Under the pieces are notes generated by a model, which made no database searches, was not told the origin of the DNA, and was given only the letters and a program-made list of their open reading frames with translations. Of a stretch of DNA of 64,000 bases, positions 10,759-52,321 are shown in pieces. Source of the DNA: Rhizaria sp. SCN 62-66 (lineage: Eukaryota); contig MEDY01000090.1 in the NCBI GenBank assembly GCA_001724265.1, forward strand, positions 1 to 64,000. Reading direction: 5' to 3'. Numbering within the stretch: position 1 is the stretch's first letter; the number at the start of each line of letters is the position of its first letter. Position numbers and translations under genes: made by a program.

Positions 10759-10790
<32 letters not shown>

Positions 10791-21995: not shown

Positions 21996-24900
21996 TTAGA
22001 TGCTAAGCGACTTCAAGAACTTGGCCAATTCGCTTCCATCGTCCTCGTTCTCTTGCGCCACAGCATCAGTGTTGTTGTTGTTATCGTCGTTGTCACTGGC
22101 GTCATCAAACGTAAGCCGCCTGTTCTCCTGCTCGATCCCCTCACCATCGCCACCATTGCCTTCGTCATCAAGCTTAACCCAGTCTTCAGCGTTGCTGTTA
22201 TCATCTTCAACACCGCTATCGTTGTACACACCGCCCTTACTCGTGCACTTGTGCGGCGGCTGCTGGGCCTTGGTCGTACTGGCGGGAATCAGCCCCGCGT
22301 CCTTGTCCCTCTTGTACCGCTCCGCAAGTGCCTTCATAACAGCGCCCTGAGCCACCTTCACAGGCTTCCCACTTACACCTACGCTAGCACTCACATCTGC
22401 GTTGACGCCAGTAGTCGCTGGGATTGCCGCCCTAGTCGCAGCAGCAGCCGCGAGCTCTTTGCGCACTTGGCCCGCGTGCTGCTTGACGTACGCCGCGTAA
22501 CCCGTGAGCTCGCGTTCCTTTACAGGCGTGCCGTCATTCTTGAAGCGGCCCACAAGCATCAGCTTCCCATAGCATTTGCCACAGCGCTTTTTGTCGAGAT
22601 CGATGGATTTGCTGTGGCGCCTGTATTCAAGAGCGCACGCCACGCAACGGAACAGAAACGGCTTGTGGACCTGATAGCTATGGCAGCGCGTGACGACGAG
22701 TTTCCGGTCGTAACGAGTCGCGCGCGCGCCCCAGGCGTAGAAATAGCTGTCGTGAAAGGGACGAACCCTGTCGATGAGCCATGTCGCGACGTGGCACAGC
22801 TCGTGGCAGAGTACCGAGCGCAGGCGACTGGCGCTGTCGAGAACTTTAAGAGAAAGCTCAATGTTTGCCGTGCGACGAATGCGCTGCCCAATGCTTTCCA
22901 TACTGACACGATTTGTATTAGCGCCGACGCTAGCATTATTTCCAGTGCCAGAGCCAGTTGCAGCAGTCGCCGAGCTTGAGTTTGAGCCAGAGCACGAGGA
23001 AGTCACCGCGCTGTTGTTACCCGTAGTGTTGTTTGTCGGAGGCTTGTAGGCAGGAAAACGGGCGCGGCCGGCAGTCCTGAGAAGAGTTTTCGACCATTTG
23101 ATCGGCAAGTCATGAGGAAGCATGTTTTGGAACACACCAGCGTTGAGTTCAGCGAACATCGTCGCTGTCAAAGCCTCGCGACGACGAGAGAACGTCAGTC
23201 CAGTCACTTCCTCATAAATCTTACTCAGAGCAGGCTGACCATTTCCGGCATTGGTGCCCGTCTTGGTCGTGATGGTGTTCGTGTTAGGGTTCGGATCAGA
23301 CTTAAAGACGCGGTCAGTGGTGTTGTGCGGCTTAGATTTCGGCTGATCCTTTTGAGTTGGCGGCTTCACACGCGGCTGCGCAGGCGGCTTCACTTCAGTG
23401 CCGGTTTTGTTCTTGTCGACGTTGCGAGGCGGCTTAATTTCGGAGATAGACGGCTTGACATTTTCGCCGTCATAATCGTCGTCGTTGTGGGAGTGGTCGT
23501 GGTCATGGTTGTGGTGATGGCCAGAGTCATCATCATCGTCATAGTTGAAGAAACTGTTCTCGTTGTCAGTGTTGTTAAAGTCGCTGTTGTCAAACTCACT
23601 GTAAACACCAGAAATACCACTCTCATCACCATCAGTGACAACAAAGCTATGATCACTGTTGCCGTTGTTATCGCTGTAGGAGCGGTCGCTGCTGTTGTCA
23701 CTCTCACTCGTAGTGACGTCAAGGTACTTTGCCTTGTTCGTTGTCGTGTTCAGAGTGCTGTTGTCATCGTCGTCGTCATCGTCGTTGAGAATGCGCCGGC
23801 GGAGAGGTGTGCGACCGAACTTTTCATTGCGGCTTGACTTATCGTCATCATCGTCGTCGAGGACAAAGCGTGGCTTGCGCGCACTCGGCGGCACTAACTG
23901 ACCGTGAACAGAGTCAGTCATGCTTGTGTTGTTGTTCCTGTTGTTGCTGTTGTTGTTGTTGGAGTTGTTGTTTTTGCGTGCGAGAAGCAGTTGCTGAGTT
24001 GCAGTCACTAAGTCTAAAGCGGCTTTAGTTCGAGACTTGCGAGCGGGTGTCGCGCGGCGGATGGTACTTAGATCAAGGGAAGTACTCTTGCCCTCAGTGC
24101 GATCAGTAGACTTCGACTTTGACTTCGTCTTAAGTTGAGTCTTGGTGTCTTCGTTGTCGCTGCTGTCGCCCTCGTCGCCACCCTCACTGCTGCTGCTGCT
24201 ACTGCTAGAGCTTGAGCTTGAGCTTGAACTAGAGCTGCTGCCGCTGCCGCTGCTGCTGTCGCCAATAGTGATGACACTCGTGCTTGTTGCGTTATGCGCG
24301 TCGCTCTCACGGTCACTGTTGCTGTCAAGGGACCGACACTTATGCGGCTTAGGTGGCTTAGCTTCGGGTGCGCAAGGCGGCTTCTCTTGCGCAGGCCGGC
24401 GCGGCTTAACTTCGCTCTGTACGGGGCTGTGGAACACATCACTATCACTTTCACTGCCACTGATGCTGTCCTGCTTGTTTGCGGTAGTGTTCTTATTCGC
24501 GTTGTTGTGAGCGTAGTTGTAGTCAGAGTCTGAGGAGGATGACTCGTCAAGCAGCACTCTCTTCTTCTTCTGAACAGTATGGCCACCAGTGACTGTGACA
24601 GCATCGCTTTTTCGCTGAATCTTTGCGCTCGTGTCAGATTCTGAGTCAGGGCTTGTGTCAGAGCCAGACGAGCTAGAACTTGACGAGGATGATGACGACG
24701 ACGAAGACGAAGACTGGTCGAGGCGGCTAAACTTCGAGATCGAACCAGTGTTGCTCGGCCGCGTGGGGAGCTGGAGACCGTTGTGGTAGTTCTCTTCTTC
24801 AGCGTAATCGTCGTAGTCGCTCATGTTAACCGCCGCGCTCTTGACGTTGTTCTTACTAAGTTTGCCGGTGTTTGTGTTGTTGTTGAGAGTCGTAATGCCG

Positions 24901-25259
24901 AACGTGAACGCACCGCCGCCGCCGCTGGTACTGTCGTCCCAGTCATTGCGGCCGCCGACGGGGGTGCGAGGACGTGTAAAGACGGCAGTGGTTGTGCTAA
25001 CACCGCTTGAACCGTCGCCGTTGCCGTTGGAGCTCGTGCCAAAGGGGCCAGCGCCAGAGCCATATCCGGAGCCTGTGTTGGTGTTGCTGCGGCCGCTTGA
25101 TTTGGCGCCAAAGCCACGACCCCGGTACGGAGGCAGAGTCCGGGTGGTAGACGGGTCAGAAAGCAGTGACCGTACTCTCGCCGCAGCAAGAGACAGCGCT
25201 GAGGCGAGACCCTCTGTGTCGCGGAGACCTCGGAGCTCGTTCATCAGCTGCAGGTCCAT
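21996..25259 (-). CDS. GCNA: GCNA/ACRC-like SprT metalloprotease with acidic disordered N-terminus, zinc ribbon and HMG-like C-terminus
   Basis: WSKTLLRTAG, IELSLKVLD..RLRSVLCHELCH (HExxH), CxxC...RHSKSID...CGKC, then YAAYVKQH...VMKALAERYK. ATG at 25259, TAA stop. Confidence 0.85.
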   Translation of the reverse strand: MDLQLMNELRGLRDTEGLASALSLAAARVRSLLSDPSTTRTLPPYRGRGFGAKSSGRSNTNTGSGYGSGAGPFGTSSNGNGDGSSGVSTTTAVFTRPRTPVGGRNDWDDSTSGGGGAFTFGITTLNNNTNTGKLSKNNVKSAAVNMSDYDDYAEEENYHNGLQLPTRPSNTGSISKFSRLDQSSSSSSSSSSSSSSSSGSDTSPDSESDTSAKIQRKSDAVTVTGGHTVQKKKRVLLDESSSSDSDYNYAHNNANKNTTANKQDSISGSESDSDVFHSPVQSEVKPRRPAQEKPPCAPEAKPPKPHKCRSLDSNSDRESDAHNATSTSVITIGDSSSGSGSSSSSSSSSSSSSSSSSSEGGDEGDSSDNEDTKTQLKTKSKSKSTDRTEGKSTSLDLSTIRRATPARKSRTKAALDLVTATQQLLLARKNNNSNNNNSNNRNNNTSMTDSVHGQLVPPSARKPRFVLDDDDDDKSSRNEKFGRTPLRRRILNDDDDDDDNSTLNTTTNKAKYLDVTTSESDNSSDRSYSDNNGNSDHSFVVTDGDESGISGVYSEFDNSDFNNTDNENSFFNYDDDDDSGHHHNHDHDHSHNDDDYDGENVKPSISEIKPPRNVDKNKTGTEVKPPAQPRVKPPTQKDQPKSKPHNTTDRVFKSDPNPNTNTITTKTGTNAGNGQPALSKIYEEVTGLTFSRRREALTATMFAELNAGVFQNMLPHDLPIKWSKTLLRTAGRARFPAYKPPTNNTTGNNSAVTSSCSGSNSSSATAATGSGTGNNASVGANTNRVSMESIGQRIRRTANIELSLKVLDSASRLRSVLCHELCHVATWLIDRVRPFHDSYFYAWGARATRYDRKLVVTRCHSYQVHKPFLFRCVACALEYRRHSKSIDLDKKRCGKCYGKLMLVGRFKNDGTPVKERELTGYAAYVKQHAGQVRKELAAAAATRAAIPATTGVNADVSASVGVSGKPVKVAQGAVMKALAERYKRDKDAGLIPASTTKAQQPPHKCTSKGGVYNDSGVEDDNSNAEDWVKLDDEGNGGDGEGIEQENRRLTFDDASDNDDNNNNTDAVAQENEDDGSELAKFLKSLSI

Positions 25260-25974
25260 CGCGACTTCTAAGAAGCAAACAAAGCGAGCGGTTGAAATAT
25301 TTTTTAGAAAAAAAAGAAAGAAATATAGGCGGAAAATGTCGCAATCTAACATTTAGTAATAGTATATTCTAATTTGACGGTAATTGAAAAGTACTACAAC
25401 ATGTTTTTAATTCGAAGCTCGGTTGGTTGGTAAGCTGGTGCTGACCGCGAGCCGTTGCACGCGGTCGTGGTTGGCCAACGGCTAGAATTGGCGGCTGCGA
25501 TCGGTGGTCGGGGGCGTTTCAATTCAGTTCGAGTGAAAACGGGGATTGGTCTCCTGCCTTTGATGTCCGGTACTTAGAAAAGTTATAAAATGTTCATTCA
25601 CTCTTGCGCAGCGAACAAACTACTTTAAATGATAATATCTCTCAGAAGCTGCATCTACCCCTATTTCGCGTGGTGCGAAACACTTCCGTCACTCAGAGCC
25701 GTTAGTCTACTCGCCACTTCTCTTCCCTTCGCCTGATCTCCTCACCACAAAGCTATAGCGCTACGCAAACAATGTTTTCTTTTTTAAACTTGTATCTACA
25801 CCTAAGATAATTGTTTTTATTCTTGTAAGCTGACATTTCACCCCGTTATCACCCACTTTTTTGTTCCGCAATCAGCCTCCAACCTCTCCTCTTCCTCCGT
25901 CGCGGCGCCCCCTTTCCCACGCCCCGTTTCCCGCCGCTTTTCCGTTGTCGCTCCTTTTCCCGGTCCCCGACACA

Positions 25975-27938: not shown

Positions 27939-28652
27939 TTACTGCTTGTCAGCCGCAACCTCGCTGGCAGCAGCAGCCGCCGCCGCCTCAGCAGCCTCGG
28001 CGGCAGCAGCCTCAGCCTCGTCCGCAAGCAAAAGGTCGGGGTTCTCGGCAAGGTACTTCTTAAGCTTATCCAGCGCGCGGTAGCGGTGCGAGATGGCGTT
28101 CTTTTCCTCCTTGCTCATCTCCGCAAACGTCTTGAGCGCGCCGGTCTCGGGGTCAGCTGTTTGCTCGCTGGGCTGGAAGATCGGGTCCCAACCGAACGAG
28201 TTAGGGCCGCGCGCGGGGACAATGGTTCCAGGGCAAATGCCGGTGAATGTAACAGGCTGCTCGCCGGCGCGGCGGCAGAAGGAAAATGTGCACATCGCGT
28301 AGGCTGACTTGTCGGGAAAACCAGCGAGCATTTGGTTCAGACCATCGTGGTGAAGCTTGTCGAGAAACCACTTGATGTAGGGGCCAGGGAGGCCCTTGAG
28401 AGCGTTGAAGCAGAGACTGGTGTCTTCGACGATGACCGGGCAGTTGGCCTGCGCAGCGGCGAGACGGCACTTCTCGCGGGAGATGTCCTCAGGCTCACCC
28501 TGGAGCTCGGGAAGGTCGATCTTGAGGGATGTAAGCGAAGGCACGGCGTTGCCAAGGATCGCGGAAGTCTCCTTGAGCTTGTTGGCGTTGCCAGTGACGA
28601 AGGCGAGAGGCAGCACGCGGCGCGCAATACCGACGACGGGGGAAACGGACAT
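27939..28652 (-). CDS. ITPA: Inosine triphosphate pyrophosphatase (HAM1 family)
   Basis: [61 protein letters not shown] stop. Confidence 0.97.
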
Positions 28653-29188
28653 GATAAAACGCGCGGTGGGCGAAAAATGCAGTTTCGATCAGAGGATAAG
28701 TCACGGAGCTGGTGGCAAATGTGACGCATTGCGTGGCTCCGCGAGCCGTTGCCACAGTCCCTCCACTCTCGCCTTACTTTGTCAAAGTATATCACCTTGG
28801 ATCTTCCGACAGTGAGACTGTACCCAGTATTATCTGTTTTTCATAAGTGTATTATGCTTATTTTTCTTTTTATACGATATGAGTTTGATGCTATCTCTCG
28901 CGCAGTCCCATTTCGGCAATGTGACCCGAGAGCCAAGGTCTCACAGTCGCGTCTGCCCCACATTTCCCATTTGTTCTCCATTAAAGCAGAGCCTCAACAG
29001 GTTAAATGAAGAGATAACAAAGGCAACTCCCGATTAATTTTGTTTCTTTCTTCACAGACACCCAGAGCTTTTCATATCGAAATATCCCTTCTTTTCAGTC
29101 TCTGACCCTCTCGCCAGGGACAATCTTCCCGCTCCTATACATCTATCTCCACTTTGATTCGACTTCGACTGAGTCACGACCGCTCACA

Positions 29189-30214
29189 ATGTCACTGCCA
29201 CCTCAGTCATAGCCCTTGCTGCCACAGCAGCAGTTGCCACACCCACATCGCCCTTTGCGCATCTGTATCGTGAGCGACTTTTTCTTGCCCCGTCTCGGCG
29301 GCGTTGAGTTGCACCAATACCAGCTTGCGCAATGCTTACGTGCTCTGGGGCACTATGTCATCGTCGTCACAGGTTCTTACACGCCACCGCCGCCGCCTCA
29401 CCTGCCGTTAAACAAGGAAGTTAAACCGCCACGCGTTCCACAGGCGAAGTCACGCCATGAGGAGGTGGCAACGTATGCGGCGAAGGCGCATAACAACAGC
29501 AACAAGATCAACAATAACAACAACAACAACAACAGCAGTCACACCGACAGCAACACCAACGGCGACAACGACAGGGATGACGCTGGCGATGTCAGCGAGA
29601 TTGGTACTGAGACTGATGACTAGGACAGTGAGTTCTACGTGCCGTATAACAACGCACGACAAGGTGTTCGCTACTTAGCAGGGCTTAAGACGTACTATTG
29701 CCCCCACATCGCACTTCACAACCAGGTACTTAAAAACAAGATTTTATGGGATTTATCCACGGATATGAAACTGAGTTCAGAGTATAGTATGCAATAGTAC
29801 TTATTCATACTTTCTCTATGTGATTTATCTTCGTCAACGAACCTATGTGTTCCGTTAAGTAATATTCTATCAAGTGTTACTCACAATCACACTTCTTCTT
29901 TTGTTTTTGTTTCAATCAACAATCAAGGTATCTTTCCCGACTCTAATTGGATTTTTCCCTCTTTTTCGTGACATTCTGTTACGCGAGCGCATTGACATCG
30001 TCCACAGCCACCAAACCACGTCCCCTTTAGCTCACGAAGCGTTGTTACTGGCCGGTACAATGGGACTGAAGACTGTGTACACTGATCACTCATTGTTTGG
30101 CCTATCCTCAGTCTCGAGTATCCTCGTCAACCAGCTCATGGCGTTCACATTGACACCCGCGAGCGCTGTTATCTGCGTATCACATACGCTCAAGGAAAAC
30201 CTCGTTCTCCGTGT

Positions 30215-30254
<40 letters not shown>

Positions 30255-32041
30255 TGCAACAGCATTAACAACACAACGAGCAGCAAGAGTGATCTAAGTG
30301 CGAATGCCGTTGGTCTCAGTGCCAGCGCAGTGTTTACGATTCCAAATGCGTTGGACCATACACGTTTTATGCCTGCGCTAAGCGCTGAGAGGTGGTCTAA
30401 GGGTCGGCAGACACTTAACACCCCGGGCACCACTAAGACCGACGCAAACGACAACGTCGACAAGACCTTGGGTTTAACTGCGGTCAAGAGCTCTAGCTCC
30501 AGCTCTAGCTCCAGTTCTAAGTCGAGGACTCGTAAGGGATTGTCTCTAAACCACTCGAAGAACTCTACTGGCATCGCTAGCTCTCCTCCCTTGCTCGTGG
30601 CGCCTGCGCAACAACAACGCCCTGTGACCGTGGTAGCGTTGTCACGGCTCGTCTACCGCAAAGGTATTGACTTAGTGGCTGCCATCATCCCTCCCGTTTG
30701 CGCGGCGCGGCCGCATGTGAACTTCGTCATCGGAGGCGGCGGACCGAAAAATCACTTGCTACTCGAGATGATTCACCGGCATGGACTGCAGCAACGCGTG
30801 ACTCTGCTCGGGGAAGTGCCGCAGTCACGCGTACGCGCGGTCTTAGCGCAGGCTGATGTATTCCTGAACTGCTCGCTCACAGAGTCGTTTTGCATTGCTG
30901 TGCTGGAAGCGGTCGCAGTTGGCGCGAGGGTTGTTGCGACACGGTACGCAATCAGTAACTAAATTACACTTTTGGAGACATATATTATATTCTACGAGCC
31001 TTAAATTTAATTATATCACGAGTATATTTAAATTTTCGTTTTTTATTTAAAATATTAAAGCTAATCGTGCATATTGATTTCACCAAACACTTTTTGTTGC
31101 TGTTGAGTCTTACTCTCTTTCTTTGTTTCTGTTTGTTTGTGTGGATCTTCTATAGGGTGGGTGGTGTCGGTGAGATCTTACCAGAGGACGTGATCACGTT
31201 TTGCGCACCCAACGTCAGCGCTGTGTTGGCTGCGACACTCACGGCTGTCGATGACTGCGCCGTTGACAGCAGTGACCACTGTGCTATCCACAGCAATTAC
31301 AACAACAAGATCAACAATAACAACACTCACTTGAATGACAGCGGAAACAAGACCACGGGTCACCGTGATTCTAATAACAGCACGACTGCTGACATGAGTG
31401 ATGCCGGAGCTGACAGTGAGCAAGAAAGTGACCGCGACGGTGACGGTGGCCGGGAGCAGCGCCACAATAGCAACAGCAGTGATATCGCAACGACAAAGCT
31501 ACGTTGTAATGACTGTGAGCGTTTGCGTTTGCATGCGATTGTTGCAAAGCACTACTCGTGGCATTCAGTCGCACAGCGGACCGCCGTTGTCTACAACAAC
31601 ATCATGTTCGATAACAACGACACCGATCATAACGTTTACAGTCGAAACAACAGTACTGACGGTTGCAGCAATAGCATTGGGTCGTTTCGCCACTTTGCGC
31701 GTCGCTTGCTTGCCCTCACCGCGCTCCGAGTGCGGCTTTACTTCAAGTCATCCGGCCCCGTCGCTGGCCCGTTGTTTGCCGGTGCGGCCGCATTTGCCGC
31801 AGCCGTCGTGCTCCTGCTTGAAGTGATCTGGCCCCAGTCAGAGATTGAGCTTGTTCCTGATCAAGAGGACCAGTCTAAGGGGGTACTCAGTCGGCTGGAG
31901 AAGTGGGAGGACTGGACTATTGACACAACGTTATCTGCTGTATCACAAGCTGGATCGTTGCAGTCTCAGGCGCAGGCGCAGTCGATTGTGACGGTGGATG
32001 CTGGGGAAGAGGATGTTTTGTTGGGATTGCGTCTGAATTAA
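29189..32041 (+). CDS. PIGA: Phosphatidylinositol N-acetylglucosaminyltransferase subunit A; exons 29189-29725, 29928-30943, 31156-32041 (~812 aa)
   Basis: [86 protein letters not shown]. Phase-compatible GT-AG introns. In-frame TAGs at 29210 and 29621; TAA stop. Confidence 0.92.
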
Positions 32042-32462: not shown

Positions 32463-33558
32463 ATGCTCCGCAACCTCGCCCGCGTCGCGTCCAAGCTCCC
32501 TCGCACCTCCGCGCTCTCCATGCCGGCCCGTTTCTCCTCTAACGCCGTCCGCTGCCTGTCGAGCATGCACGAGCGTCTGACGACCGAGGCCGACAGCTAC
32601 GACCGCCTCCTCAACAACACCGACCCTCTGGCCGTGCTTAAGAACTCCTCCGCGACTGTTGTGGAGAACGACATCACTGTGTCGTTCGATGGTGAGCTGC
32701 ACCGCGTTGTGGTCAGCCTCACGAAGGAGTTTGACTACCGTGAGATGACTGAGGAGGAGTACGCGCAGACTCAGCGCGAGAACTCTGACGAGGCCAACGA
32801 GGACGAGGTCGACGAGGTACGTTGCTATCCGAGATAAACCTCGCTTGCATCCTATCTTTTAAATCTTCAACTCAATATTCAGTCACATCTACCTGTAAGT
32901 CAAGTTGTATTCTCACATATGTACATATACCTCTTTTGACGGCGCTTTCTTAATGCTGTTTCGCCACATTTTAGGTCGCCTTCCACCCCATCACCGCGTC
33001 CTTCACCCCCCTGTCCTCTGGCGCCGGCGCCGCGGACAAGATCACTGTTGTGGGTGAGATGCACCCTGACGGCCGCTGCCTCGTCTCCGAGATCACTCCT
33101 CACTGCAAGGCCACTGGCAACGCGCTGCGCACCATCTCCCTCGGTGACCTCGACGAGGGCTCGTCCACTGCCATCTTCGAGGCGCTTGAGGCCTGTGGTC
33201 TCCACACTACCGCGATTGAGGCTATCACCAAGCACGCCCGCCGTCTCCGCATCCAGGTACGCATATCTACTCTCGATTATCTACGTATCTCTACTCTCGA
33301 TTATCTACGCTTACACGGGGAATCAGACGTTCAGCAAAGAGTTTATTGCATTTTTCAGGACGTATTTTTGCTAAAATTGCGGTGATTTTTCTTGATATAA
33401 CTGACTAATAGTGTAATTTATGTTGCTCTCTCACATACTCAATTTTTGCGCTTTTTTGTGCGACATTTCGTCTTGTTTTGTGTTTTTGCTGTAAACAGGA
33501 GCACGTCGATGCCCTCAAGGCTATCAACGAGTTCGTCCTCAAGAGCACCACTGACTAA
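32463..33558 (+). CDS. Mitochondrial acidic matrix protein, MAM33/C1QBP-like; exons 32463-32816, 32975-33256, 33499-33558
   Basis: Arg/Ser-rich presequence-like N-terminus, acidic middle, and C-terminal DLDEG..AIFEALEACGL...EHVDALKAINEFV resembling the MAM33 family pattern. Phase-0 GTACG..AG introns; TAA stop. Confidence 0.65.
33266..33309. repeat. Short direct repeat in intron (TCTACTCTCGATTATCTACG x2)
   Basis: Two exact 20-nt copies at 33266 and 33290. Confidence 0.8.
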
Positions 33559-36500
33559 GTGCAAAGTAAGTCCCTAACACTTTTATCGCTCGTACAGTGT
33601 AAGTACTCGTCTTACATGCAAGGAACAGATCTCTTTGATGTCTATCTCGAGCTTCATCAACAACGTTCAAGTTATGCTTGAAAGCTAAAGTTCAGCGACA
33701 CACGTCATGGGGATCGTATTCAAGCATGTCATGTCACACAAGACATTCTCGCGGTCTTATGTCATGATGGCGAAGCAAAGCTAAGGCAATGCAAGAGCAG
33801 TATCACCTGGTTGATGTTGTTTCGCTTTGTCACGGTTTTGTTCAGTCGATTGAGATAGGGCTTGGTAGAGTGTGATAACTTATTTTCTCATCCTGTCATC
33901 AGTGTAATTTAACAAGAACAACAATAAACCGAAAATTAAACTGCAACATACCAAACAGAGGCACTACGCCGTGTCTTGGCAGCAAACAACTGACGGCAGC
34001 TCTCGCGACGAAGAAACCTCAGCGCGACCCCGAACAGGCGCGATCGTGCATCACTGCCGGCCCTACTGACAAGTTCACAGCCACTTAATGCCATCGGCGA
34101 TGTCTTGGGATGTCGCCGTTCTGTAACGAGCCTCAATTTACCACAGATGTGAAATATACCACGTTTAAACAATGTCAGCGCTGAATACACAAACATACCT
34201 TAAGTGACCGTAATCACAACATCTAATGGTTACATGTGTTACCGTTTTGGTTAAAAGTAGGGGTGAAAAAGGAGCTTCATGTGTATTTGAAAGAGAAATA
34301 TGACTGTTCATCAAAGAACAAGCCGGAGATGAGAGAGTGATGAATAACCAAAACAAGCCAGAAAAGCACACGGACAGCCTTTGGGTGAAAAGAACAACAG
34401 CGGAGGCGATCGTTCAATCGAGAGCTAGAGAGTCGACGAGTACGTGTGATAGGTTATTCTGACTTATATTCGTAAGAGATTGCTCTGCGTTGGAGTCCTT
34501 CCTTCCACAAAAGGACTCGCAACTATACACACACAGGAACAGTAGCAGCAACAACTCCAAACACAAGATTGTTTGTGGTGAATGTTGTTAATATTATGGT
34601 TGGTGAGTGTACAGAGAGGGTGGGTTAGTAAGAGAGAGGTAGTTTTGTTGCCACAAAACAAAAAAGCATAGCACTGATCGGTTGTAAGTGCGGATTTTTG
34701 TTTTTGTTTGGACTCGCGTGTGGGGCCAGCACAAGCGCACTCAGCAACACTAACAACAGCGCCACCATAAGCGAGGTGTTGGAAGTATTGCAGAAGGGAA
34801 ACGTAGTGATTTGCTTTCTATACGACGCATAGTTCATATGTCTCTGTCCGCTCTAATGAGAGAACATAGCGAGACGCGAAAGCACACTAGTTACGCTTGT
34901 CCCACAGGGAGTCGCATCCCCCCGCTTACAGAGAGTGCAAGGGGAGGTGCGAGTAGTCGGCGAGTCCGGAGGGGGGAGGGACAACAAAGGGAGACATGAA
35001 GCGGTTAGTATCGATCTAAAGCATGAGTTAAAACAACACACACACAACAATGTTATTGGAGTTGTTGTGTCGCGACTGATGCAAAAGAAAGTGAGATTTG
35101 TGAGCAAAGACAAAACATCTAGTCACTCTGAAAGAGTAAATGAGTGAAAGTATTTTGTGAAAGCATAACACGATATCAAACAAATAAAGATTTGTTTGCT
35201 TGTCCGCGTAATGCTTGCGTTGCTCTCGGCCCCCTTACACACGCATACACGACTTAGGTTTTGAGACGAAGTCTAAGTGTGTGTGTGGAGTGTAAAGGGG
35301 ACACGAGGAAAAGTGACTGACTTATTTGATTAAAACACAATCGCAAGGAACAAACAGCTTTGCTGCAGTTTGAACGTTACGTAAAGTGCTAGTGTTGTTC
35401 AAAATAGAGCAGGAAAGTAAACTGCTGTGACTATAAATCAGCGTCAACAGTCAGGTTACTCACTTACCACAGGTGATATACAAATACCAGTGTGTAAGCA
35501 CAAGGTGATACGAGGCCTTGTCCAGATCTAAGGGGGGTTTGTTTTTAAATCTAAGTAGAATCTGCGTGAGCGAAATGGCACACAACAGAACAGGGGGTGA
35601 ACAACATCAAAGTTAAGGCGTCAGCGCAAACGCGCCCCTCGATCTCCCGACAAAGAAAGTCAAGCCGCAACAGAGGCAGCTTAGCTTCGCGTTGAAGTGA
35701 AAGAGAGGGGCATGCATGCGATCATTTCCTCGCCCTTAGCTAACCGCCACAGCTACACTGTTGCTCTCCAGTTCGTTCATTCGCCTGAGTGTGTGGGCAG
35801 AGTAAACGGATGAGAGCAAGTGTAAAAGGTGCGCTGGTTCGAAGAGCGCACCACCGTGGCGGGTGTTAGTGTCCAGAGAGACGAGTATACAAGGCAGGAG
35901 CCAGTCGGTAAACAGCGCATGTGACGGCGCATCGACATACTGACTGACACAAGTTGTAAGCGTGAAGCTACTCAGGACTTAAGGCGACGACGACTGCAAG
36001 TGTGTGAAAAAGAAAAAAACTTGTTACTGGAGTTACGAGAGCTTGTGCTGGATGTTTGCTTGCTTGTGCTTGGGTTATGTTTGTTTTGGTTGTTGTTTGT
36101 TTTGGAATACGAAGAGAGTTTTGCGAAAACTGTTATTGGTGTTATTTTGTTTTGTTCTTGGGTTTTTGTTTTTGTTTGGTTTCTAGTTTTGTTGATGTTT
36201 TTTTTGAGCGCCATAGAAGTTATTTTTTGTTTTGTTATTTTGAGGGCGTTTTAAAAAGAGAATTGATAGTAAAAATGCATCGGAAGAGGAATTGAAATAT
36301 CAAGGTGACAGTTTCGCTAATGATTTAGCATGAGAAGAACAGAGACTAAAACTATAAAAAAAATAAAGAGCAAGTAAGCAAGCAAGTAAAGATGAAGAGA
36401 AATGAAAGAAAGCACAAGTTGATTCGTAGCTGTCACAAGAGACACACGTTTTGAGTTAGCAGTCGGGTCGCACCAAGTCGACAGTAGCATCACCTCGCAT

Positions 36501-38186
36501 AGCTGACACACCAACACCCACTCTTATCAATCAGAGACTTACATTTGCGATGACGGAAGGACGCGTCCGCGTGAAATCTAAGTAGCTGTGTGACGGTGGG
36601 CTGTTAGCAAGGCGTAAGGGTGTACAAAGGGGGATGATGACGGGAAGGGCCTCGCTCACTCACTACCACAAAGCGACAAAACACACAGATGTTGCTCTGT
36701 CGTGGTGTTGCAAGAGTAAAGAGAGCGAGGCTTGAGAAAGAGAGAGAGACTATGTAACGAATATGTAACGGGGGGTTTGCAGCTAAACTTTTGAGAGATA
36801 GATAAAGTTAAGTTGCAGAAGAAAAAAAAAGAAGTTGGTTGTAATGCCTCCAGAGTCCAAACAAGCACTCGTGGACTTCGTCGTCGATGTTATAAGGAGT
36901 TACATGTAAGCCGAAAGCAGTGGTGTCCAGTCACCGCGATCTAAGTACTCGTTACAACTCGAAGTAAGTCCAAGCGAAGTTGAGGAATCGGAAACATAAC
37001 GCGAAAGGTAAGTGTTGATGTTTGCTTAAGTTCGTTGCTGGTATGAGCAGTCATAGTGTAAGAATAGGCGAGCGAATGTACGCGAAGTGAGGATCAACGA
37101 TGTCCAGTGTAAGTAGTTCGTGGTCGCGAGTCTAAGTGGCGTCAAGTGCACACGACAGCGAGAGTCCCATTTCCCCCTCAATCTTGCCTGCTCAGTTTCT
37201 TCTCGATTCCCTCTAATGTTTGTCACAGTTAATCGGCAAATACAACACAGCGGAGGGTATAAACACACTCACACATCAAGTCGTCAGACAGCGAAATTCA
37301 GCCTCTTTGCGAGTGACTTCACAGCAGCTAATTTTTAACACCACTCAGTCTCCCCCTTGCAGTCAAGCAGCGGCACACCGAGCGAGAACAACGTCACGGA
37401 CACCAACAAAGCAAGTAGCAAGTCGCAGTGTAAAATAGCAGCAGGAAAAGCGCAGAGGCGACGACCCAAGGCGCGTCAGCCCGTTACGGCGACAGCAAGG
37501 CCTCGGGAAGCAGCAGCAACCACGCTTTCCCAGTGCGAACGCGGTGATGATGCTGATTCGCGAGTCACAGCAACAGCGACAGCAGCGGCGGCGAATGTGA
37601 TGGCGGTGGCGGCTGCGTAGCTGTGGGGAAATGTACGTGACGCGTCAGCCGAGGCGACAGCAGGACACTTACATTTCCACAGCACACGCGCGCACACTTA
37701 CACACACATACACACCGCTTACCGAGGATTGTTGTTGCTTCCCGCTTCCAACATCACACGTACTTAGCGAATGCTACAGAGTTGTTGTTGTTCGGATAGT
37801 TCAAGATCGATATTGTCGTCGTTCATGCAAGGCAAGAGTGAGAGAAGTGGTAAAGCAATGCCAAGTTACACAAAAAGAGAGAGATTTCAAGTTCTTGTGA
37901 CGAGAGAGTGAGAGTTGCAGACACCGAGCGTGACAGAGCCAGATTAAGTCATGGATAGAGTTGTGACAGAGAGAGAGGGAACATGAAGAGAATAGAGCTG
38001 AAGAGAGCGAGAGAGGTAGAGACTGCGTCAGTATACACGACAGCAGAACACGAAAAGACACAACAACGAAGCACGAATACAGGGACAAAGCGTCCACAGG
38101 TACGCTCGAATGAACGCCAGAGAAACACTAGATATACAAAGCAAGTTCACAACACGAGTGACAGCTGTGAATGAAGCAAGACTTTC

Positions 38187-38356
38187 CAGTGCGCGCAGTA
38201 TGCACTGTGAAAGGAAAGCCAGTCACAGAATCACTTGGATGCTGACAGTAGAGGAAGACTGAGATTAACAGTGCGCGCAGAATGCACTGTTAAGTACTCT
38301 AATCCTAGTCTAAGTCATTGTTGACATTAGCTTGAGAAGTGCGCGCAGAATGCACT
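38187..38356 (-). repeat. Three copies of a hairpin motif AGTGCGCGCAG(A/T)ATGCACT downstream of the bZIP gene
   Basis: Copies at 38187-38207, 38265-38293 (10-bp stem TTAACAGTGC/GCACTGTTAA) and 38338-38356. Confidence 0.8.
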
Positions 38357-38829
38357 CGTTACATTACATAAAGTCAACAGATCAATCGTGTTTACAGTGC
38401 GTCATTGACATGTTTTCTGAGATTATTAGAAAGCTCGTTCTGTCACTGCGTGTGTTTAATTCGAGCGGCGATAGGTCCAGTCACCGGCCCCTTGACGAAG
38501 TCATCACTCGCACTCGCGCTATTCATTGACGATCGCGCGTTGTCAGTGGGACACGCTTATCAGAGAGCAAGAGGGGTGACACAACAATTTCTTGTCGTGC
38601 CTATATCTCTCTCTCCCTCAAAGCAGTCGCAAACACAAAACAAGCACGAACGAGTCAGCTTTAGCACACGCGAGCGAGGACAGTCAAGCAACGGACACGG
38701 ACGAATCAGCGGCACCCGCACACACACAGCAACACAGAAACGAAGCAAAAAATGTCGCACAAAAAACAAACACTGAAACACACAGAGCATGGCACAGCAG
38801 AATAGCATTAGGCTGGCCTAAGGGGGTAC

Positions 38830-41824
38830 TTAAACGGCGAGGAAGTCCGACCACTCGCACTCACTCTCACCGACATGGCTGTCCTTCTTGCCAGCACCCT
38901 TGTTCGCATTCGCCGTGGCCGCCGCCGCCATCAACAGAGACTGCACAGCAGGAGCAGCAGAGCTGCTGTTGCCGGCAGGAGTCATGGCGGTGTGGTTGGG
39001 AAGGCCGAAGCTGTTGTAGCTGCTCATCATCATCATCGCCATCTGCGGCAGCACCGCGTTCTCAGTCGTGTTGTTGTTATAAGAACTCATGACGGTACTC
39101 GTGACCGGCGCAGCCACGGGCTTCGGGGAGCCGGGCGCGGACGAAGGCGCGGAAGACGGCGCCGACGACGCCACACTGGCACTGGCGCTGGCGCGATTGA
39201 TGTTGCTGTGGGCGGCGGTAGGAGACGCTGGCACACTGTTGACCGGCGTGGACGCCGCGCTATGAGCGGCGGCGGGGGGCAGAGCGAACGAGATGAGGAG
39301 CGAGTCGGCCGTGGGCTTGGCGGACGTAGTGGCGACGAAGCTCACGCTCGACCGAGCGCTCGAGTTGGCGCTTGACTGCGCACTGACACTGGCACTGGCG
39401 GCGTCGCCATCTTCGCTCTCGCTGAAGTAGTCGCTGTTGAGGCTCGCCACACTGGCGCTGGCGCTAGAGCTGGTGGGGGCGGCACGCACGCGCACGTTGC
39501 TCGCGGTGCTGTTGGAGCTCGTGCTCGTGGTGCTCACATGCGAACGAGCGCTGCTGAGGTCCTGGAAGCCAACAAGCGCTGCTGTTGCTGCTGCTGAGCC
39601 ATCAGCCCCGAGACCGTCAGCCCCAAGGCCGCGGCCATGGAGCCCGAGCCCGAGACGGCGATCGAAGTCGGCATCATCGAGGCCAAGCCCGAGCCCAAAA
39701 CCGAGGCCGAGCCCAAGGTTGTGGTTGAGGCCGCTGTGAGCGCTGAGAGGGCCAGCGGCGCCGTGAGGGAGGACACCGGCGTTGTGGTCAAAACCGAGGC
39801 TGCCAGCGTTGTTGCCGCCGTGGTTGTTGAAGCTGGTGTAGCTGCTGAGAGCGAGGAGGGGCCCCGCAGCAAGCTGCTGCTGTTGCTGCTGGCCATGGTA
39901 ATAGCCGGCGGCACTGCCGCTGTTGTCGAGTGCGAGAGAGACAGAGTCAACGGCCGGTGCAGCAGCAGCATTGACGGCGGCAACAGCGCCGAGCTGCTGC
40001 TGCTGCTGGTGCTGGTAGTGCTCGCGCTGGCCGAAGGCGCCGAGAGAGTCGACAGCGCCGTCAGTGCCGGCGACAGCGGCGGGGACGCGGGGGGCGCCGG
40101 CGACAGCGACAGAGGCAGACGGTGAGCCGTTGACGCTGATGCTGAAGCTGGGGCCGGAGCGAGCTGACGCTGCTGCTGTTGCGCCAACAGGGGCGCCAGC
40201 GGCAGAAACGTTGTTGACGCAGACACCGCCGGCGTTGTAGTAATAGCACTGCTGCTGCTGCTGCTGCTGCTGCTGCTTGTTTTCGCAGTGGCGGCTGTCA
40301 TCGCTGTCATCGCTGTCGTCGTCGTCGTCTCCGTAGCTGCTGTGGCCGGCAGCGGCTGACTGCTGCTGCTGGCGGTAGCGCTGGGGGCGGGCGCGGACAC
40401 GGCGCTGCTGACGCTGAGAGGCTTCACCCTGCTGCTGCTGCTGGTTGCTGCCGAGAGAGAAGACAGAGTGAGCGGTGATGCGAGGGACACCAAAGGTGAC
40501 ACCGTTGCTGCCGTGGCCGTGGCCGCTGCCGCGAGCGAGAGTCTGGAGCTGGTGCTGCTGGTGCTGGAGCTGGTAGTGCTGGTGGAGATGTTGTTGTTGG
40601 ACACACGCATCAACAGTTGTGATGGGACAGAGGCCATGGTGTGACCAACAGCAACAGCAGCAGCAGCAGAACCAGCAGAAGCACCGGCCACAGAGGAGCC
40701 AGAGACAGTCGCGTTGGAAGCAGAGTGAGCAGAGGTGTTGTTGGAGTCAGTAGAGGTGGTGTTAGCAGAGCCCTGGACAGGGGCGCTGGGGGTCTCATAG
40801 TACGCAGCAGGGGGAACCGTGCTAGCAGGGACCATGCTAGCAGTGGTGTGGTTGAGGCCGTTAAGAGCAATCACGGTGGCGGCCGAGGCCGGGGGACTGG
40901 AGTTGTACGACGACAAACGCGGCAGCACACCAGACGTCGCCGTCGCAGTTGCGGGGGCGTGGGTGTTTGCGGGGTAAGTTAAGCCGTAGCTGTTGTTGCT
41001 GTTGTAGCCGAGCACCGAGGACGTCGACGCAAGGCCGCCAAACATGCCGCTGTGGGCGACAGTCGCCGCCACAGAGACGTGGTGGTGAGGGTGGGCCTGG
41101 CTTTGGGGCTGCGAATGGGGGTAGCCGAGTGACGCCGAGAGGCCGCTTGCAGCAGGGTGACCGTGGGCAGCGGCCGCAGCAAGGTAGTTCTGGCTCTGAC
41201 TCTGCTGGTGACTCTGGTTGAGAGTCGGGGGTAGCGAGGGCAGGGACGGAGGCGCAAGCCGCACGGGCGGGGGCGGAGTGTTGGCCTCGGGCGCAGAGTG
41301 GGTCGACACCGCAGACGACGGGACGCCGTTGCTCATCGCGCTGCTAGTCGCACCGGCGGACTCGAGGACACCGAAGCGGGCTTCAAGCTCCTTGAGGCGC
41401 GCGCTGAGCTGGACGATGGTGGCGTTGGCATTGTCGAGCTCGCCCTGCAGGGACGTCACCTGCATGCGCTTGCGGCCGCGAGACTCCTGCGCAGCGATGC
41501 GGTTCTGAATCTGGCGACGACGCTTCCTGTGGTTGAGTGGGGGAAGCGTAGAGCAGCACAATCAAGGCGCGAAGAGAAAAAGACAAATACAAAAAGATAT
41601 ATGTAAGTGTTAAGTATTGAAAGAGTGAGGTTTGAGTTCGCCAAATAGTTATGGGGAAGTTGCAGCGAGGTTCTTGGGGAAGGGGTGACGTACTTTTCCT
41701 CAGAGGAGAGCTGGTTGGGCTTCATTTCCAGGAGGCTGCGGTCGTGGTCAGAGAGCTCGAGGATGTCCTCGGGGTCGTCGTCCTCAAACTCACGCAAGCG
41801 GCGGACTTGGCCCGTCGCTGACAT
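38830..41824 (-). CDS. XBP1/HAC1-like bZIP transcription factor; exon 41824-41694, spliceosomal intron 41693-41527; frame A ends TGA at 39534 (~707 aa), frame B ends TAA at 38830 (~937 aa if 14 nt are removed)
   Basis: The spliced basic region LSSEEKKRRRQIQNRIAAQESRGRKR plus leucine zipper resembles XBP1 (LSPEEK..RRKLKNRVAAQTARDRKK). Two overlapping open frames lie downstream. Confidence 0.75.
40590..40655 (-). other. Bifurcated RNA stem-loop; candidate 14-nt unconventional intron 40630-40617
   Basis: Basal stem GTTGCTGTTGGTCACAC/GTGTGTCCAACAACAAC (15 of 17 pairs) encloses the loops CCTCTGT and CAACTGT, at the point where the protein-like frame switches. Confidence 0.5.
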
Positions 41825-42497
41825 GAGTACTGCGTGTTACGGAAGCGCAAAAGAGGCTTGAAGAGAAAGTGGGAAGGGCCTTGGTGTTGCAGGGGAGGCT
41901 TCGTTCGAAAGCGCACGCGGGAAAAGCGGGCAAAAGCTGCGCGTGACAGAAGACAAGATATAAAAATCGGTTGGACTAAGCCGTATCGTATTCTGAAAGT
42001 GCACTGAACAGGAAAATTAAGGACACGTTCGTCGTCATTTACGCATTTTAAGCCGGCACCACATCGCTCAAAGGCGGACCTGGCGGCTTAACTTTGATTC
42101 TGACCACAAACACTTTTTTGTAGCCAGCTGGCTGGCACAGTCGGTCGGTTTGTCTCGGTCGGCTGTTGCCAAGTGCTCTAGACAGACCGGCGAGATGCTT
42201 TTTCATGTAAATGTGACTCTGTGGATCATTTATTTTGTTTATAACTTTTCTTATAGAGCTAAATCGTAACCTTATTGCTATTGATACTATTCGTATGCGC
42301 ACTGACGGAACCCCCTTTGTGCTCTATCCTCTTTTTGCCCTCCCTTGACTTGGTCCCTGCAGCTCGATCCCCGCGGCGCAACACGCGCACCCGCACGCCT
42401 TTCCCTTTGCTCTGCTCCACTTTCACCCCTACTCCCACCTTTGCACTTGCGTAATCCGCCTGTCTGTGCGCCGTCGCCGCGTTTTGTGTTGATTACC

Positions 42498-50626: not shown

Positions 50627-51916
50627 TCACTTACTTTCGTTGTTTGCAACAACAACACAGTGTCTATCACTGCTCTCGTCAGTATTAGCGTTGCTGTTCG
50701 TGCCATCGTCGTCATGCTTCACAATCATCCAGCCACCGTTGTTGTTTTTCGCCTGAACCTCGCGCCATTGCGCCGCGACAATCGCCGCCACAACACCAGC
50801 CTTCAACTTGCCACTCTTCCCACTCACAAAGCTGCTCACATCACTGTTTACGGAGCTATTGTTGAAGAGATAGATGGCTTCCGCAAGCTCTTGCAACTTC
50901 TTCCGCTCAGTGTCATCCTTCACGACAGCGCACCAGTAAAACCGTGCAGAGCTAACGCTATTGGGCACAGTGCCAGCCACGAGAGCTTCTTTGACTAATG
51001 CCCATACCAGCGGAGCCTGGAGATGTCCCAGCCCAAACAAAGAGAGACACTTAAGCACGCGTGTAATGCGGAGGTAGTTGTGCCCTTTGTTGTTGAGGTT
51101 ACGCAGCCGGTCGAAGCAGTCGTTGGTGTTGCGCGCGAGCTCCCCCGTCGCGAGGGACACCAGGCGGAAACCGATGAAGCGCAGGTACACGCGGTAGTGC
51201 TCGAGCACAAGTACCTGGTACTCGTGGGGGTTGGCTGTAATTACGGCGAGTTCGTGCGGCTGCAGCGGGGACGCGTTGGGATTCATACCGGGTTCAGGGA
51301 TGGGGAAAAGCCACTGGATGTAGTCGTGCGCGGTCTCCAAGTACGCGTTGTCCTTGGCAAGCGGGCCCGTGATGAAATCGTTACGGTAATGCTTGCCGTT
51401 CATCTTGAGCTTGTTGGTGAAGAAGTCGAGGTTGGGAGTCGCTTTCGTCTGGAAGTGCTTCGGTAACGGCGTAGGGTAGCCGGCAAGAAACTCTTCGGCG
51501 TCGCGGGCGGCGCGGAAGGCGTCGGCCGATCGCATGCGCTGGCCTGATTGCGCAAAACCGCCAGCACCAGCACGAGAGGAAGCATCGGGAGAGAGGGCTG
51601 CGTCTTGCGCGGACCAGCAGGCGGCGAGATAGGCGTTTGCGCCGTCTAAGTCAGGCGTAATAACCATGCCATCACTTGGGGTGGGCTTGAAGGAAGCGGA
51701 TTTGCTTGCGCTTGTTGTTGCGGGGAGAGCGGGAGCGGTTACCGCAGTTGCGCTCGAGCTTGCGCGCGAGACAGACTTGTTGCTGTCAGTCGAAGTGACG
51801 GAGGCAGCGTTGACTGCTTTAGACTGCGCGGGCTTTTGGAGTGTAGGAGTCACAGTCGTAGCTGATGTGCTTGCGTTAGACGCGGCTGCGGTAGCAGCTT
51901 CGGTGGGGTTCTGCAT
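50627..51916 (-). CDS. Opioid growth factor receptor (OGFr) conserved-domain protein
   Basis: LETAHDYIQWLFPIPEPGMN, LRFIGFRL, NLNNKGHNYLRITRVLKCL, FYW. Start (ATG 51916) and end are uncertain: the TGA overlaps a GTAAGT donor-like site at 50634. Confidence 0.8.
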   Translation of the reverse strand: MQNPTEAATAAASNASTSATTVTPTLQKPAQSKAVNAASVTSTDSNKSVSRASSSATAVTAPALPATTSASKSASFKPTPSDGMVITPDLDGANAYLAACWSAQDAALSPDASSRAGAGGFAQSGQRMRSADAFRAARDAEEFLAGYPTPLPKHFQTKATPNLDFFTNKLKMNGKHYRNDFITGPLAKDNAYLETAHDYIQWLFPIPEPGMNPNASPLQPHELAVITANPHEYQVLVLEHYRVYLRFIGFRLVSLATGELARNTNDCFDRLRNLNNKGHNYLRITRVLKCLSLFGLGHLQAPLVWALVKEALVAGTVPNSVSSARFYWCAVVKDDTERKKLQELAEAIYLFNNSSVNSDVSSFVSGKSGKLKAGVVAAIVAAQWREVQAKNNNGGWMIVKHDDDGTNSNANTDESSDRHCVVVANNESK

Positions 51917-52321
51917 CTGCAAGTGTGGTGAACAACACCGAGATATGACTTTTGGCGACGATGGACTCTTAAAGTACGTATATCTCAATCAGACTTCCGT
52001 CTTTCACTAGAAAATAGTAGGAACAAACAGATATGTTAGTTTTTAATGATATTTATAAAGTGTACAATACACGCCAACGGTTTCAATTCTGGGGGCGTCT
52101 TCTTCTTAGCTCGATGAATCTGGCTTGCTGTGTCAGCTGGCTGGTTAGTTTGTGGTGTAAACGCAATACATGATTGGAAACTGTGATGTATTGCTCTGTC
52201 TGGGCCATGCTCAGAGCATTCCGACATTAAATAATGGCCATGAACCCAAATATACTAGTTAACCAGAGAAATCCACTCGTTTCTCACCCCAAAGCAATGA
52301 AATTAGCGCATCATGCGTAAC

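Follow-up and report, generated by a model that had tools for sequence, protein, structure and literature searches.

The window analysed here is a stretch of 64,000 nucleotides (nt) from Rhizaria sp. SCN 62-66 (GenBank assembly GCA_001724265.1, contig MEDY01000090.1, positions 1 to 64,000 of the forward strand). Its minus strand carries, at 41824-38830, a gene encoding a bZIP protein. This gene contains one conventional GT-AG intron and two long overlapping reading frames offset by +2, here called frames A and B. A candidate unconventional intron of 14 nt (CTGTCCCATCACAA) lies in exon 2 and is associated with two small hairpins (Table 1). For an orthologue from another species, forms that contain and forms that lack the homologous 14 nt are on record.

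Exon 1 is 131 nt long and ends with the residues ..MKPNQLSSEE followed by two bases of a codon for K. It is supported by the alignment of positions 176-298 of L002, one of the two sister-species records, with 41812-41693 of the window. Exon 2 begins at 41526 with KRRRQIQNRIAAQESRGRKR.. and the Pfam bZIP matches cover residues 1-49 of the translated segment 40632-41525 (minus strand). A bZIP mRNA had been named as the host of the element in an earlier note on this DNA, made from its letters alone, and these matches agree with it. Frame A is an open reading frame (ORF) of 675 codons (41561 to 39534) that reads ..HTMASVPSQLLMRV... at the site, and frame B is an ORF of 638 codons (40746 to 38830) that reads VDACVQQQHLHQ.. 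from 40614. Since frame B equals A+2, only a 3n+2 excision joins A to B. Past the site, frame A stays open for 365 codons and frame B for 594, of which 235 lie beyond the frame-A stop. The predicted products are a protein of ~707 amino acids (aa) from the unspliced message and one of ~937 aa, with a new 594-aa tail, from the spliced message. Acidic stretches were noted by eye in the frame-B tail of the window (DDDDDSDDSDDS and SDYFSESEDGD..) and similar ones in that of L002 (a D-rich run and SEYFSDDSDADAD..).

Five loci (L001-L005) were returned when metagenome contigs were scanned with the family alignment. L001 is the window's own sequence (100% identity across 1,066 nt, conventional intron included). 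L004 and L005 are coiled-coil or chance matches rather than orthologues and were excluded from all counts. L002 (5,993 nt) and L003 (5,814 nt) represent the orthologue from another species, still more GC-rich, with 94% aa identity in the bZIP (bZIP_1 in L003, Pfam E 1.3e-07). The two-frame layout of L002 is the same as that of the window, frame A reading ..ALASVPSHLLTRV.. and frame B VDARVRSQ.., and its positions 804-817 (CTGTCCCGTCACAT) align base for base with 40630-40617 of the window. These 14 nt are missing from L003, where a single 831-aa frame reads ..AHALAS directly followed by VDARVRSQ... Apart from this gap, L002 and L003 show 0 differences across 5,804 compared bases (632 before and 5,172 after). 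Both an intron-containing and an intron-less form are therefore on record in the sister species, differing by a short non-GT-AG piece. The gap had been predicted from the window before L002 and L003 were seen: the earlier note had placed the cuts after loop position 3, freeing 40630-40617 (14 nt, 3n+2) and joining ..MAS to VDAC.. in frame B. The coordinates hold, the homologous 14 nt are the sole difference between the two records, and the junction has its counterpart in the ..ALAS then VDARV.. of L003. We regard this comparison, which comes from another species, as the decisive evidence for the predicted excision, which it largely supports.

Table 1. Features of the bZIP gene, of the candidate intron and of neighbouring genes in the window
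Feature	Coordinates	Strand	Details
Exon 1	41694..41824	-	ATG 41824-41822, 43 codons + 2 nt (MSATGQVRRLREFEDDDPEDILELSDHDRSLLEMKPNQLSSEE plus bases 1 and 2 of the K codon)
Spliceosomal intron, GTACGT...ACAG, 167 nt	41527..41693	-	sequence and border match in L002
bZIP basic region and zipper (KRRRQIQNRIAAQESRGRKRMQVTSLQGELDNANATIVQL...)	41379..41525	-	Pfam bZIP_1 E 2.4e-07, bZIP_2 E 9e-06
Exon 2, portion 5' of the candidate unconventional intron	40631..41526	-	frame A, last residues ..GHTMA and base 1 of the S codon
Candidate unconventional intron, 14 nt = 3n+2	40617..40630	-	homologous 14 nt in L002, missing in L003
Hairpin 1, GG-CCUCUGU-CC, 2-bp stem and 7-nt loop	40625..40635	-	proposed 5' cut after loop position 3 (after 40631)
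Hairpin 2, CAUCA-CAACUGU-UGAUG, 5-bp stem and 7-nt loop	40608..40624	-	proposed 3' cut after loop position 3 (after 40617)
Basal stem around both hairpins, 17 positions, 15 pairs	40590..40655	-	40655-40639 with 40606-40590, returned by RNAfold
Extended exon-exon stem, 53 predicted pairs around a 28-nt twin-hairpin core	40535..40712	-	folding and shuffled-flank control
Frame A continuation in the unspliced mRNA (SVPSQLLMRVSNNN... to ...ALVRM)	39534..40630	-	stop 39536-39534
Post-excision coding sequence, frame B (VDACVQQQHLHQ... to ...ECEWSDFLAV)	38833..40616	-	stop 38832-38830
Ham1-like ITPase	27942-28688	-	family match
PIG-A (glycosylphosphatidylinositol anchor synthesis)	29859-30959	+	family match
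OGFr_N	50630-51988	-	family match
SprT-like	21999-25352	-	family match
Ankyrin + FYVE	6002-7765	-	family match

The conventional intron is missing from L002 and L003 exactly at the exon borders of the window (L002 ..298 corresponds to 41693 and 298.. to 41526), and both records therefore fit cDNA-derived assemblies. They may nevertheless be either RNA or DNA assemblies, and in the latter case the 14 nt would represent an indel between alleles. According to this explanation the two records would be genomic and come from two populations, one of which carries a 14-nt deletion; the fused frame would still be shown to be viable. The 3.3 kb of ORF-poor, Pfam-less sequence past the stop do look more genomic than typical mRNA. 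However, the complete identity of the compared bases, the position of the gap exactly between two conserved hairpin loops, its exactly frame-fusing length and the missing conventional intron all argue against a polymorphism. The window, too, has ~5 kb without an ORF of at least 140 aa past the gene, and a very long 3' untranslated region (UTR) is therefore possible. We consider an allelic deletion improbable.

On the 3' side of the bZIP stop in the window (33400-38800), no ORF of at least 140 aa occurs for ~5 kb and the sense strand is pyrimidine-rich. The 3.3 kb 3' of the stop in L002 (2686-5993) are ORF-poor, as in L003, without a Pfam match and with the same pyrimidine skew. This stretch may correspond to a very long 3' UTR or to a conserved gene-poor flank.

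The gap could also have arisen in the library or during assembly, by a jump of reverse transcriptase or polymerase across the 4-5-nt (T)CTGT repeat, the shortened path being kept in one sample. It is indeed flanked by a direct repeat and located inside a strong hairpin, which are the conditions for template-switching artefacts. However, such products are normally rare and not the consensus of a 5.8-kb contig. Short border repeats are also inherent to IRE1 introns, because the two loops are alike. An artefact would moreover leave unexplained the conservation of the loops, the compensatory pairs and the two-frame layout found in two species, and it appears very unlikely.

The window and L002 can be aligned at the DNA level in three islands only: exon 1 (75.6%), the bZIP (84.7%) and 36 nt at the site (88.9%). 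The remainder of the 2.7-kb gene is unalignable, and from the bZIP domain to the stop codon no DNA island other than the site is conserved. A 42-nt core carries seven substitutions. Four of them are accounted for by two compensatory pairs (A-U to G-C), of which the basal stem and hairpin 2 hold one each; the other three are unpaired (two in the linker and one, A to U, at position 3 of loop 2); none breaks a pair. All 12 core pairs are kept in the two sequences, and the innermost five pairs of the basal stem are kept in L002, one of them by compensatory change. Hairpin 1 of L002 is identical to that of the window. Its hairpin 2 exhibits a CGUCA/UGACG stem (A-U to G-C) and the loop CAUCUGU. In a control where the 3' partners were slid by 1-3 columns, 17-67% of the cells paired and zero compensatory pairs were observed.

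The twin hairpins described in the earlier note (40635-40625 and 40624-40608), whose 7-nt loops have the pattern CNNCUGU in common, are present in the sequence, and RNAfold returns the basal stem of 15 pairs in 17 positions that it had drawn beneath them. The 66-nt fold reaches -23 kcal/mol (z -2.5, RNAfold) and the 131-nt fold -56.9 kcal/mol (z -5.26), a value equalled by 0/200 shuffles. In the window the site forms the apex of a stem with 53 enclosing pairs; shuffled flanks give 20 on average and reach 53 in 0/300. The 5' arm of this extended stem is composed of GCU/GGU/UCU/GUU codons and its 3' arm of AGC/ACC/CAG-type repeats. The enclosing stem of L002, likewise with the site at its apex, comprises 51 pairs, a number reached by 7/300 of the shuffled-flank controls. 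The flanks that build the long stem are themselves unalignable, with GCU/AGC repeats in the window versus GC-rich unique sequence in L002. The long enclosing stem persists in the natural spliced form, L003. Concerning the inner hairpins, the hairpin-2 fold with a 7-nt loop lies 0.1 kcal/mol above the minimum in L002, and hairpin 1 of the window forms in the constrained fold only.

The GC content at third codon positions (GC3) of frame A is 0.48 over 40639-40700, compared with 0.7-0.86 elsewhere in the gene. This segment is the 5' arm of the long stem and consists almost exclusively of T-ending codons (GCT, GGT, TCT, GTT). Its low GC3 is the pattern that would be expected from selection for pairing with the AGC/ACC-rich 3' arm.

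The cut register is ambiguous because (T)CTGT stands at both borders, leaving five positions in the window and six in L002; in the window, a cut pair shifted by 0 to 4 nt 3' gives an identical product. None of the five registers has GT-AG, GC-AG or AT-AC ends (they are CT..AA, TG..AC, GT..CT, TC..TG and CC..GT), and likewise no register of the 14 nt of L002 has GT..AG. A spliceosomal micro-intron was ruled out by this absence of spliceosomal border dinucleotides in every register. The candidate intron measures 14 nt versus 167 nt for the conventional intron of the same gene. A bulge-helix-bulge of the tRNA type (3-nt bulges on the two opposite strands with a 4-bp helix between them) was also rejected. 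No staggered bulges can be drawn, and the internal loop of the minimum-energy fold is symmetric (3x3), with a helix of 3 bp. A search of Rfam 15 over 38500-42000 on both strands (E up to 1) gave six weak matches, 0 at 40590-40655. An 11-nt copy of the would-be ligated junction sequence occurs at 38939-38929, with no second copy in L002, and is probably due to chance.

This organization can be compared with that of known IRE1 substrates, described here from excerpts of the papers cited. Yeast Ire1 needs CNG^(C/A)NGN (^ marks the cut) in a 7-nt loop (PMC8104961). Mammalian IRE1alpha targets have the consensus CUGCAG, whose G is 'strictly conserved' (PMC2952871). Metazoan XBP1 shares with the present element a bZIP host, a short non-GT-AG intron between similar stem-loops, a 3n+2 swap of the C-terminus and the presence of the bZIP in both forms. 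Its exon flanks also pair with each other (the 'RNA zipper', PMC4687415). However, the XBP1 intron is 26 nt long rather than 14 nt, and its loops are C(C/U)GCAGC instead of CNNCUGU with no G before the cut. In addition, hairpin 1 of the present element has a 2-bp stem and its exon-exon stem is far longer (~50 pairs), and its bZIP is without significant similarity beyond its own small family. The short-intron forms of fungal HAC1 (19-22 nt, in Candida albicans and relatives) likewise combine a very short intron with a frame change. They differ in length (19 nt for the shortest in PMC6222058 versus 14 nt here), and the loops here fit at C-3, C+1 and G+3 but not at G-1. HAC1 introns as a whole range from 19 nt (C. 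albicans) to 379 nt, with newly found ones of up to ~850 nt (PMC6222058, citing Hooks and Griffiths-Jones 2011). A full-text literature search in one library found no printed 14-nt IRE1 intron. The earlier note had taken the intron to be shorter than the known IRE1 introns, which agrees with the 19-nt minimum found in print in these excerpts.

Plant bZIP60 has a 23-nt intron and its splicing removes a transmembrane segment. Its mRNA is spliced by IRE1 and, like the present gene, it combines a bZIP with twin loops and a shift of frame (PMC3216516); each of its loops has three conserved nucleotides (PMC4891664). The sites of regulated IRE1-dependent decay in Schizosaccharomyces pombe also depart from CNG^CNGN, with UG^C in loops of 3, 7 or 9 nt (PMC5650469, PMC8104961). 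However, cleavage there leads to decay and not to ligation, and the cut is flanked by G^C, which no register provides here. The present element would work like an IRE1 intron but lacks one defining feature of the consensus and is therefore best described as a variant of the known class.

A search of sequencing runs yielded six environmental runs (wastewater, activated sludge, biofilm), of which four (X1, X2, X3 and X5) were compared as contigs. X5 includes an exact, gap-free 512-nt contig across 40515-41026, so that the genomic form is real, and this run may represent the sample from which the window derives. The earlier note had named an assembly indel as the event that might fuse the frames; this is refuted by the X5 contig together with the same two-frame layout in the second species. 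X2 includes poly(A) RNA contigs identical to 38997-39967. A contig of X1 stops at 40624, inside the candidate intron, and was given no weight (depth 5). Many contig 'joints' at the site were discarded, their short sides (20-38 nt) lying in CAG/CTG repeats and coming from other organisms. A 179-nt contig of X3 aligns from 41526, exactly where exon 2 begins, and is preceded by 13 unplaced letters; a spliced mRNA across the conventional intron would give such a contig. At 38959, contigs of X1 and X3 (one sample) lack 2 nt in a GCTGCT repeat, ~42 codons before the frame-B stop, at low depths (5.8 and 2.3), while the X5 contig keeps both. Strains may differ at this point, or the contigs may be in error; a genuine difference would alter the last part of the frame-B protein.

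We think it probable that this gene produces a stress-switch mRNA of a bZIP transcription factor, working like XBP1, HAC1 and bZIP60. The unspliced message would be read in frame A to give the ~707-aa protein. A site-specific endonuclease, most likely the endoplasmic reticulum (ER) stress sensor IRE1 as suggested by the architecture of the element, would cut once in each 7-nt loop (CCU^CUGU and CAA^CUGU), or at the same pair of sites moved by up to 4 nt. The two cuts would release the 14 nt (40630-40617), and the ~50-bp exon-exon stem would keep the cut ends together. They would then be joined by an RNA ligase, possibly of the RtcB or Trl1 type. Translation of this message in the organism of the window would continue in frame B through the 594-aa C-terminal part, with its acidic motifs, to give the ~937-aa protein.

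In addition to the possible DNA origin of the two sister records, several observations weigh against this reading. The fold with twin 7-nt loops is not the minimum-energy one, from which it differs by +3.5 kcal/mol in the window and by +1.5 kcal/mol in L002. The stem of hairpin 1 is limited to 2 bp, a weakness that the earlier note had itself pointed out. The covariation that it had proposed to look for in relatives is present in the 12/12 pairs kept and the two compensatory changes, but the shuffle control is not significant (137/500) because only two sequences are compared. The frame-B proteins of the window and L002 have no significant BLASTP match to each other (best E 0.13, SLLISFALPPAAA / STLASFVLPPAAA). 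In word-index, atlas and phmmer searches the bZIP is not tied to XBP1 or HAC1 by sequence.

Codon usage adds a further discrepancy. All along the 5' side of the site, frame A has a positive codon score and frame B a negative one. From ~40525 to its stop, frame B scores positively and better than frame A, which is mildly positive as far as ~39600. The earlier note had claimed that the frame changes exactly at the site; frame A is indeed coding 5' of it and frame B 3', but the codon-usage change-point is best near 40545 (plateau 40351-40560), ~70 nt or more 3' of the site. A switch at ~40620 scores 23 bits below this best change-point, and GC3 in L002 favours frame B only from about position 1400. 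The mismatch is possibly due to low-complexity composition or dual coding, and we graded it as not decisive and not as a refutation.

These data can also be read as the absence of any excision in the organism of the window, in which case the hairpin would arise incidentally from complementary triplet repeats and the protein would be that of frame A. Long hairpins are common in the triplet-repeat-rich window, where, by GC-corrected energy, the site holds rank 7 among 6,388 windows (+ strand). Frame A remains open for its 365 codons with a weakly positive codon score, and none of the four runs X1, X2, X3 and X5 provides an RNA contig over 40590-40655. However, the core is 88.9% conserved in a relative where the excised form exists. 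Frame B, moreover, is open for 594 codons and has the better score from ~40525 to its stop, including the 235 codons past the frame-A stop. We give this reading very little credence.

The base that precedes the cut constitutes a further objection. It is U or A, never G, in 4/4 loops (CCU^CUGU and CAA^CUGU in the window, CCU^CUGU and CAU^CUGU in L002), as the earlier note had remarked for the window. Although the loops fit the consensus at C-3, C+1 and G+3, no alternative register yields G^C. A genuine RNA excision might accordingly be carried out by another nuclease, for instance a tRNA-splicing-type endonuclease or an unknown enzyme. Both loops lack the pre-cut G of all characterised IRE1 substrates (PMC2952871, PMC8104961, as excerpted), and 14 nt is below every IRE1 intron length found in print. 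However, the architecture is of the IRE1 type: the paired 7-nt loops carry C at positions 1 and 4 and G at position 6, the host encodes a bZIP, and the frame switch is 3n+2. The 3x3 internal loop with its 3-bp helix, for its part, offers no bulge-helix-bulge. Moreover, Ire1 specificity varies between species, as illustrated by UG^C in S. pombe loops of 3-9 nt (PMC8104961, PMC5650469). Another nuclease is thus hardly probable, and an IRE1-type enzyme remains the preferred candidate.

More distant members of the family are few. Of the five matches that a phmmer search against 1.84 billion representatives gave (E up to 0.001), P0001 (276 aa) alone is a true orthologue, the other four being coiled-coil or unrelated proteins. 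P0001 shares ELS..DR.LL.MKPNQLS and the basic region with the window, and residues 21-40 encoded by exon 1 match it at 70% identity across 20 positions. P0006 (264 aa), which stems from a transcriptome collection, was added by a profile search. These two proteins, neither of which carries a name, were compared at the protein level only. Both contain DAVPSL (~158-163 in P0001, ~144-149 in P0006), corresponding to ASVPSQ in the window and ASVPSH in L002, in otherwise unalignable sequence and at a comparable distance past the zipper. Such a match would be expected of a conserved RNA element that is translated in the unspliced frame. With Ala (GCN) where the window has Ser (UCU), position 3 of loop 1 in P0001 and P0006 would be the canonical G. 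Word-index protein searches with the frame-B C-terminus and the bZIP as queries gave no matches, a feature-based atlas search with the bZIP gave generic bZIP clusters only, below 0.9, and scans of genome and viral contigs gave no additional relatives. The basic region 'EEK..RR..NR.AAQ.SR.RK' presumably resembles those of XBP1 and HAC1.

To our knowledge, very few substrates of IRE1-mediated splicing are known, and its rules (two 7-nt loops, a pre-cut G, introns of at least 19 nt) are held to be near-universal. We lean towards the view that this protist lineage possesses an IRE1-type switch at a possible physical minimum. A 14-nt intron and a 2-bp hairpin would be offset by a ~50-bp stem, with cuts after U or A, in place of the presumed invariant G, made by an IRE1 of altered base specificity. 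The host family (..LS..DR.LL.MKP..L....KRRR.[IL]QNR[IL]AAQESRGRK), whose sequence bears no recognisable likeness to XBP1 or HAC1, would then be the long-sought IRE1 substrate of a group of microbial eukaryotes in which none is known, extended to AT-rich relatives by P0001 and P0006. If this is true, an intron of 14 nt, a hairpin of 2 bp and the lack of G at -1 would redraw the minimal IRE1 substrate and indicate a variant IRE1 specificity. It would also explain why motif searches miss the unfolded protein response (UPR) transcription factor in many protists. The UPR factor of Dictyostelium, for example, was still 'unidentified' in 2018 (PMC6025073, excerpt). More generally, unconventional splicing in uncultured eukaryotes can be exposed by pairs of environmental contigs distinguished by a short gap.

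Five further genes of the window were recognized by clear family matches (Table 1), which mark this DNA as eukaryotic. For the PIG-A-like gene, the atlas search gave bacterial-type GT4 clusters only. The minus strand also carries an uninterrupted frame of 3,811 codons (9395-20827), which matches no Pfam family at E up to 1e-05 and contains several of the strongest hairpins of the window.

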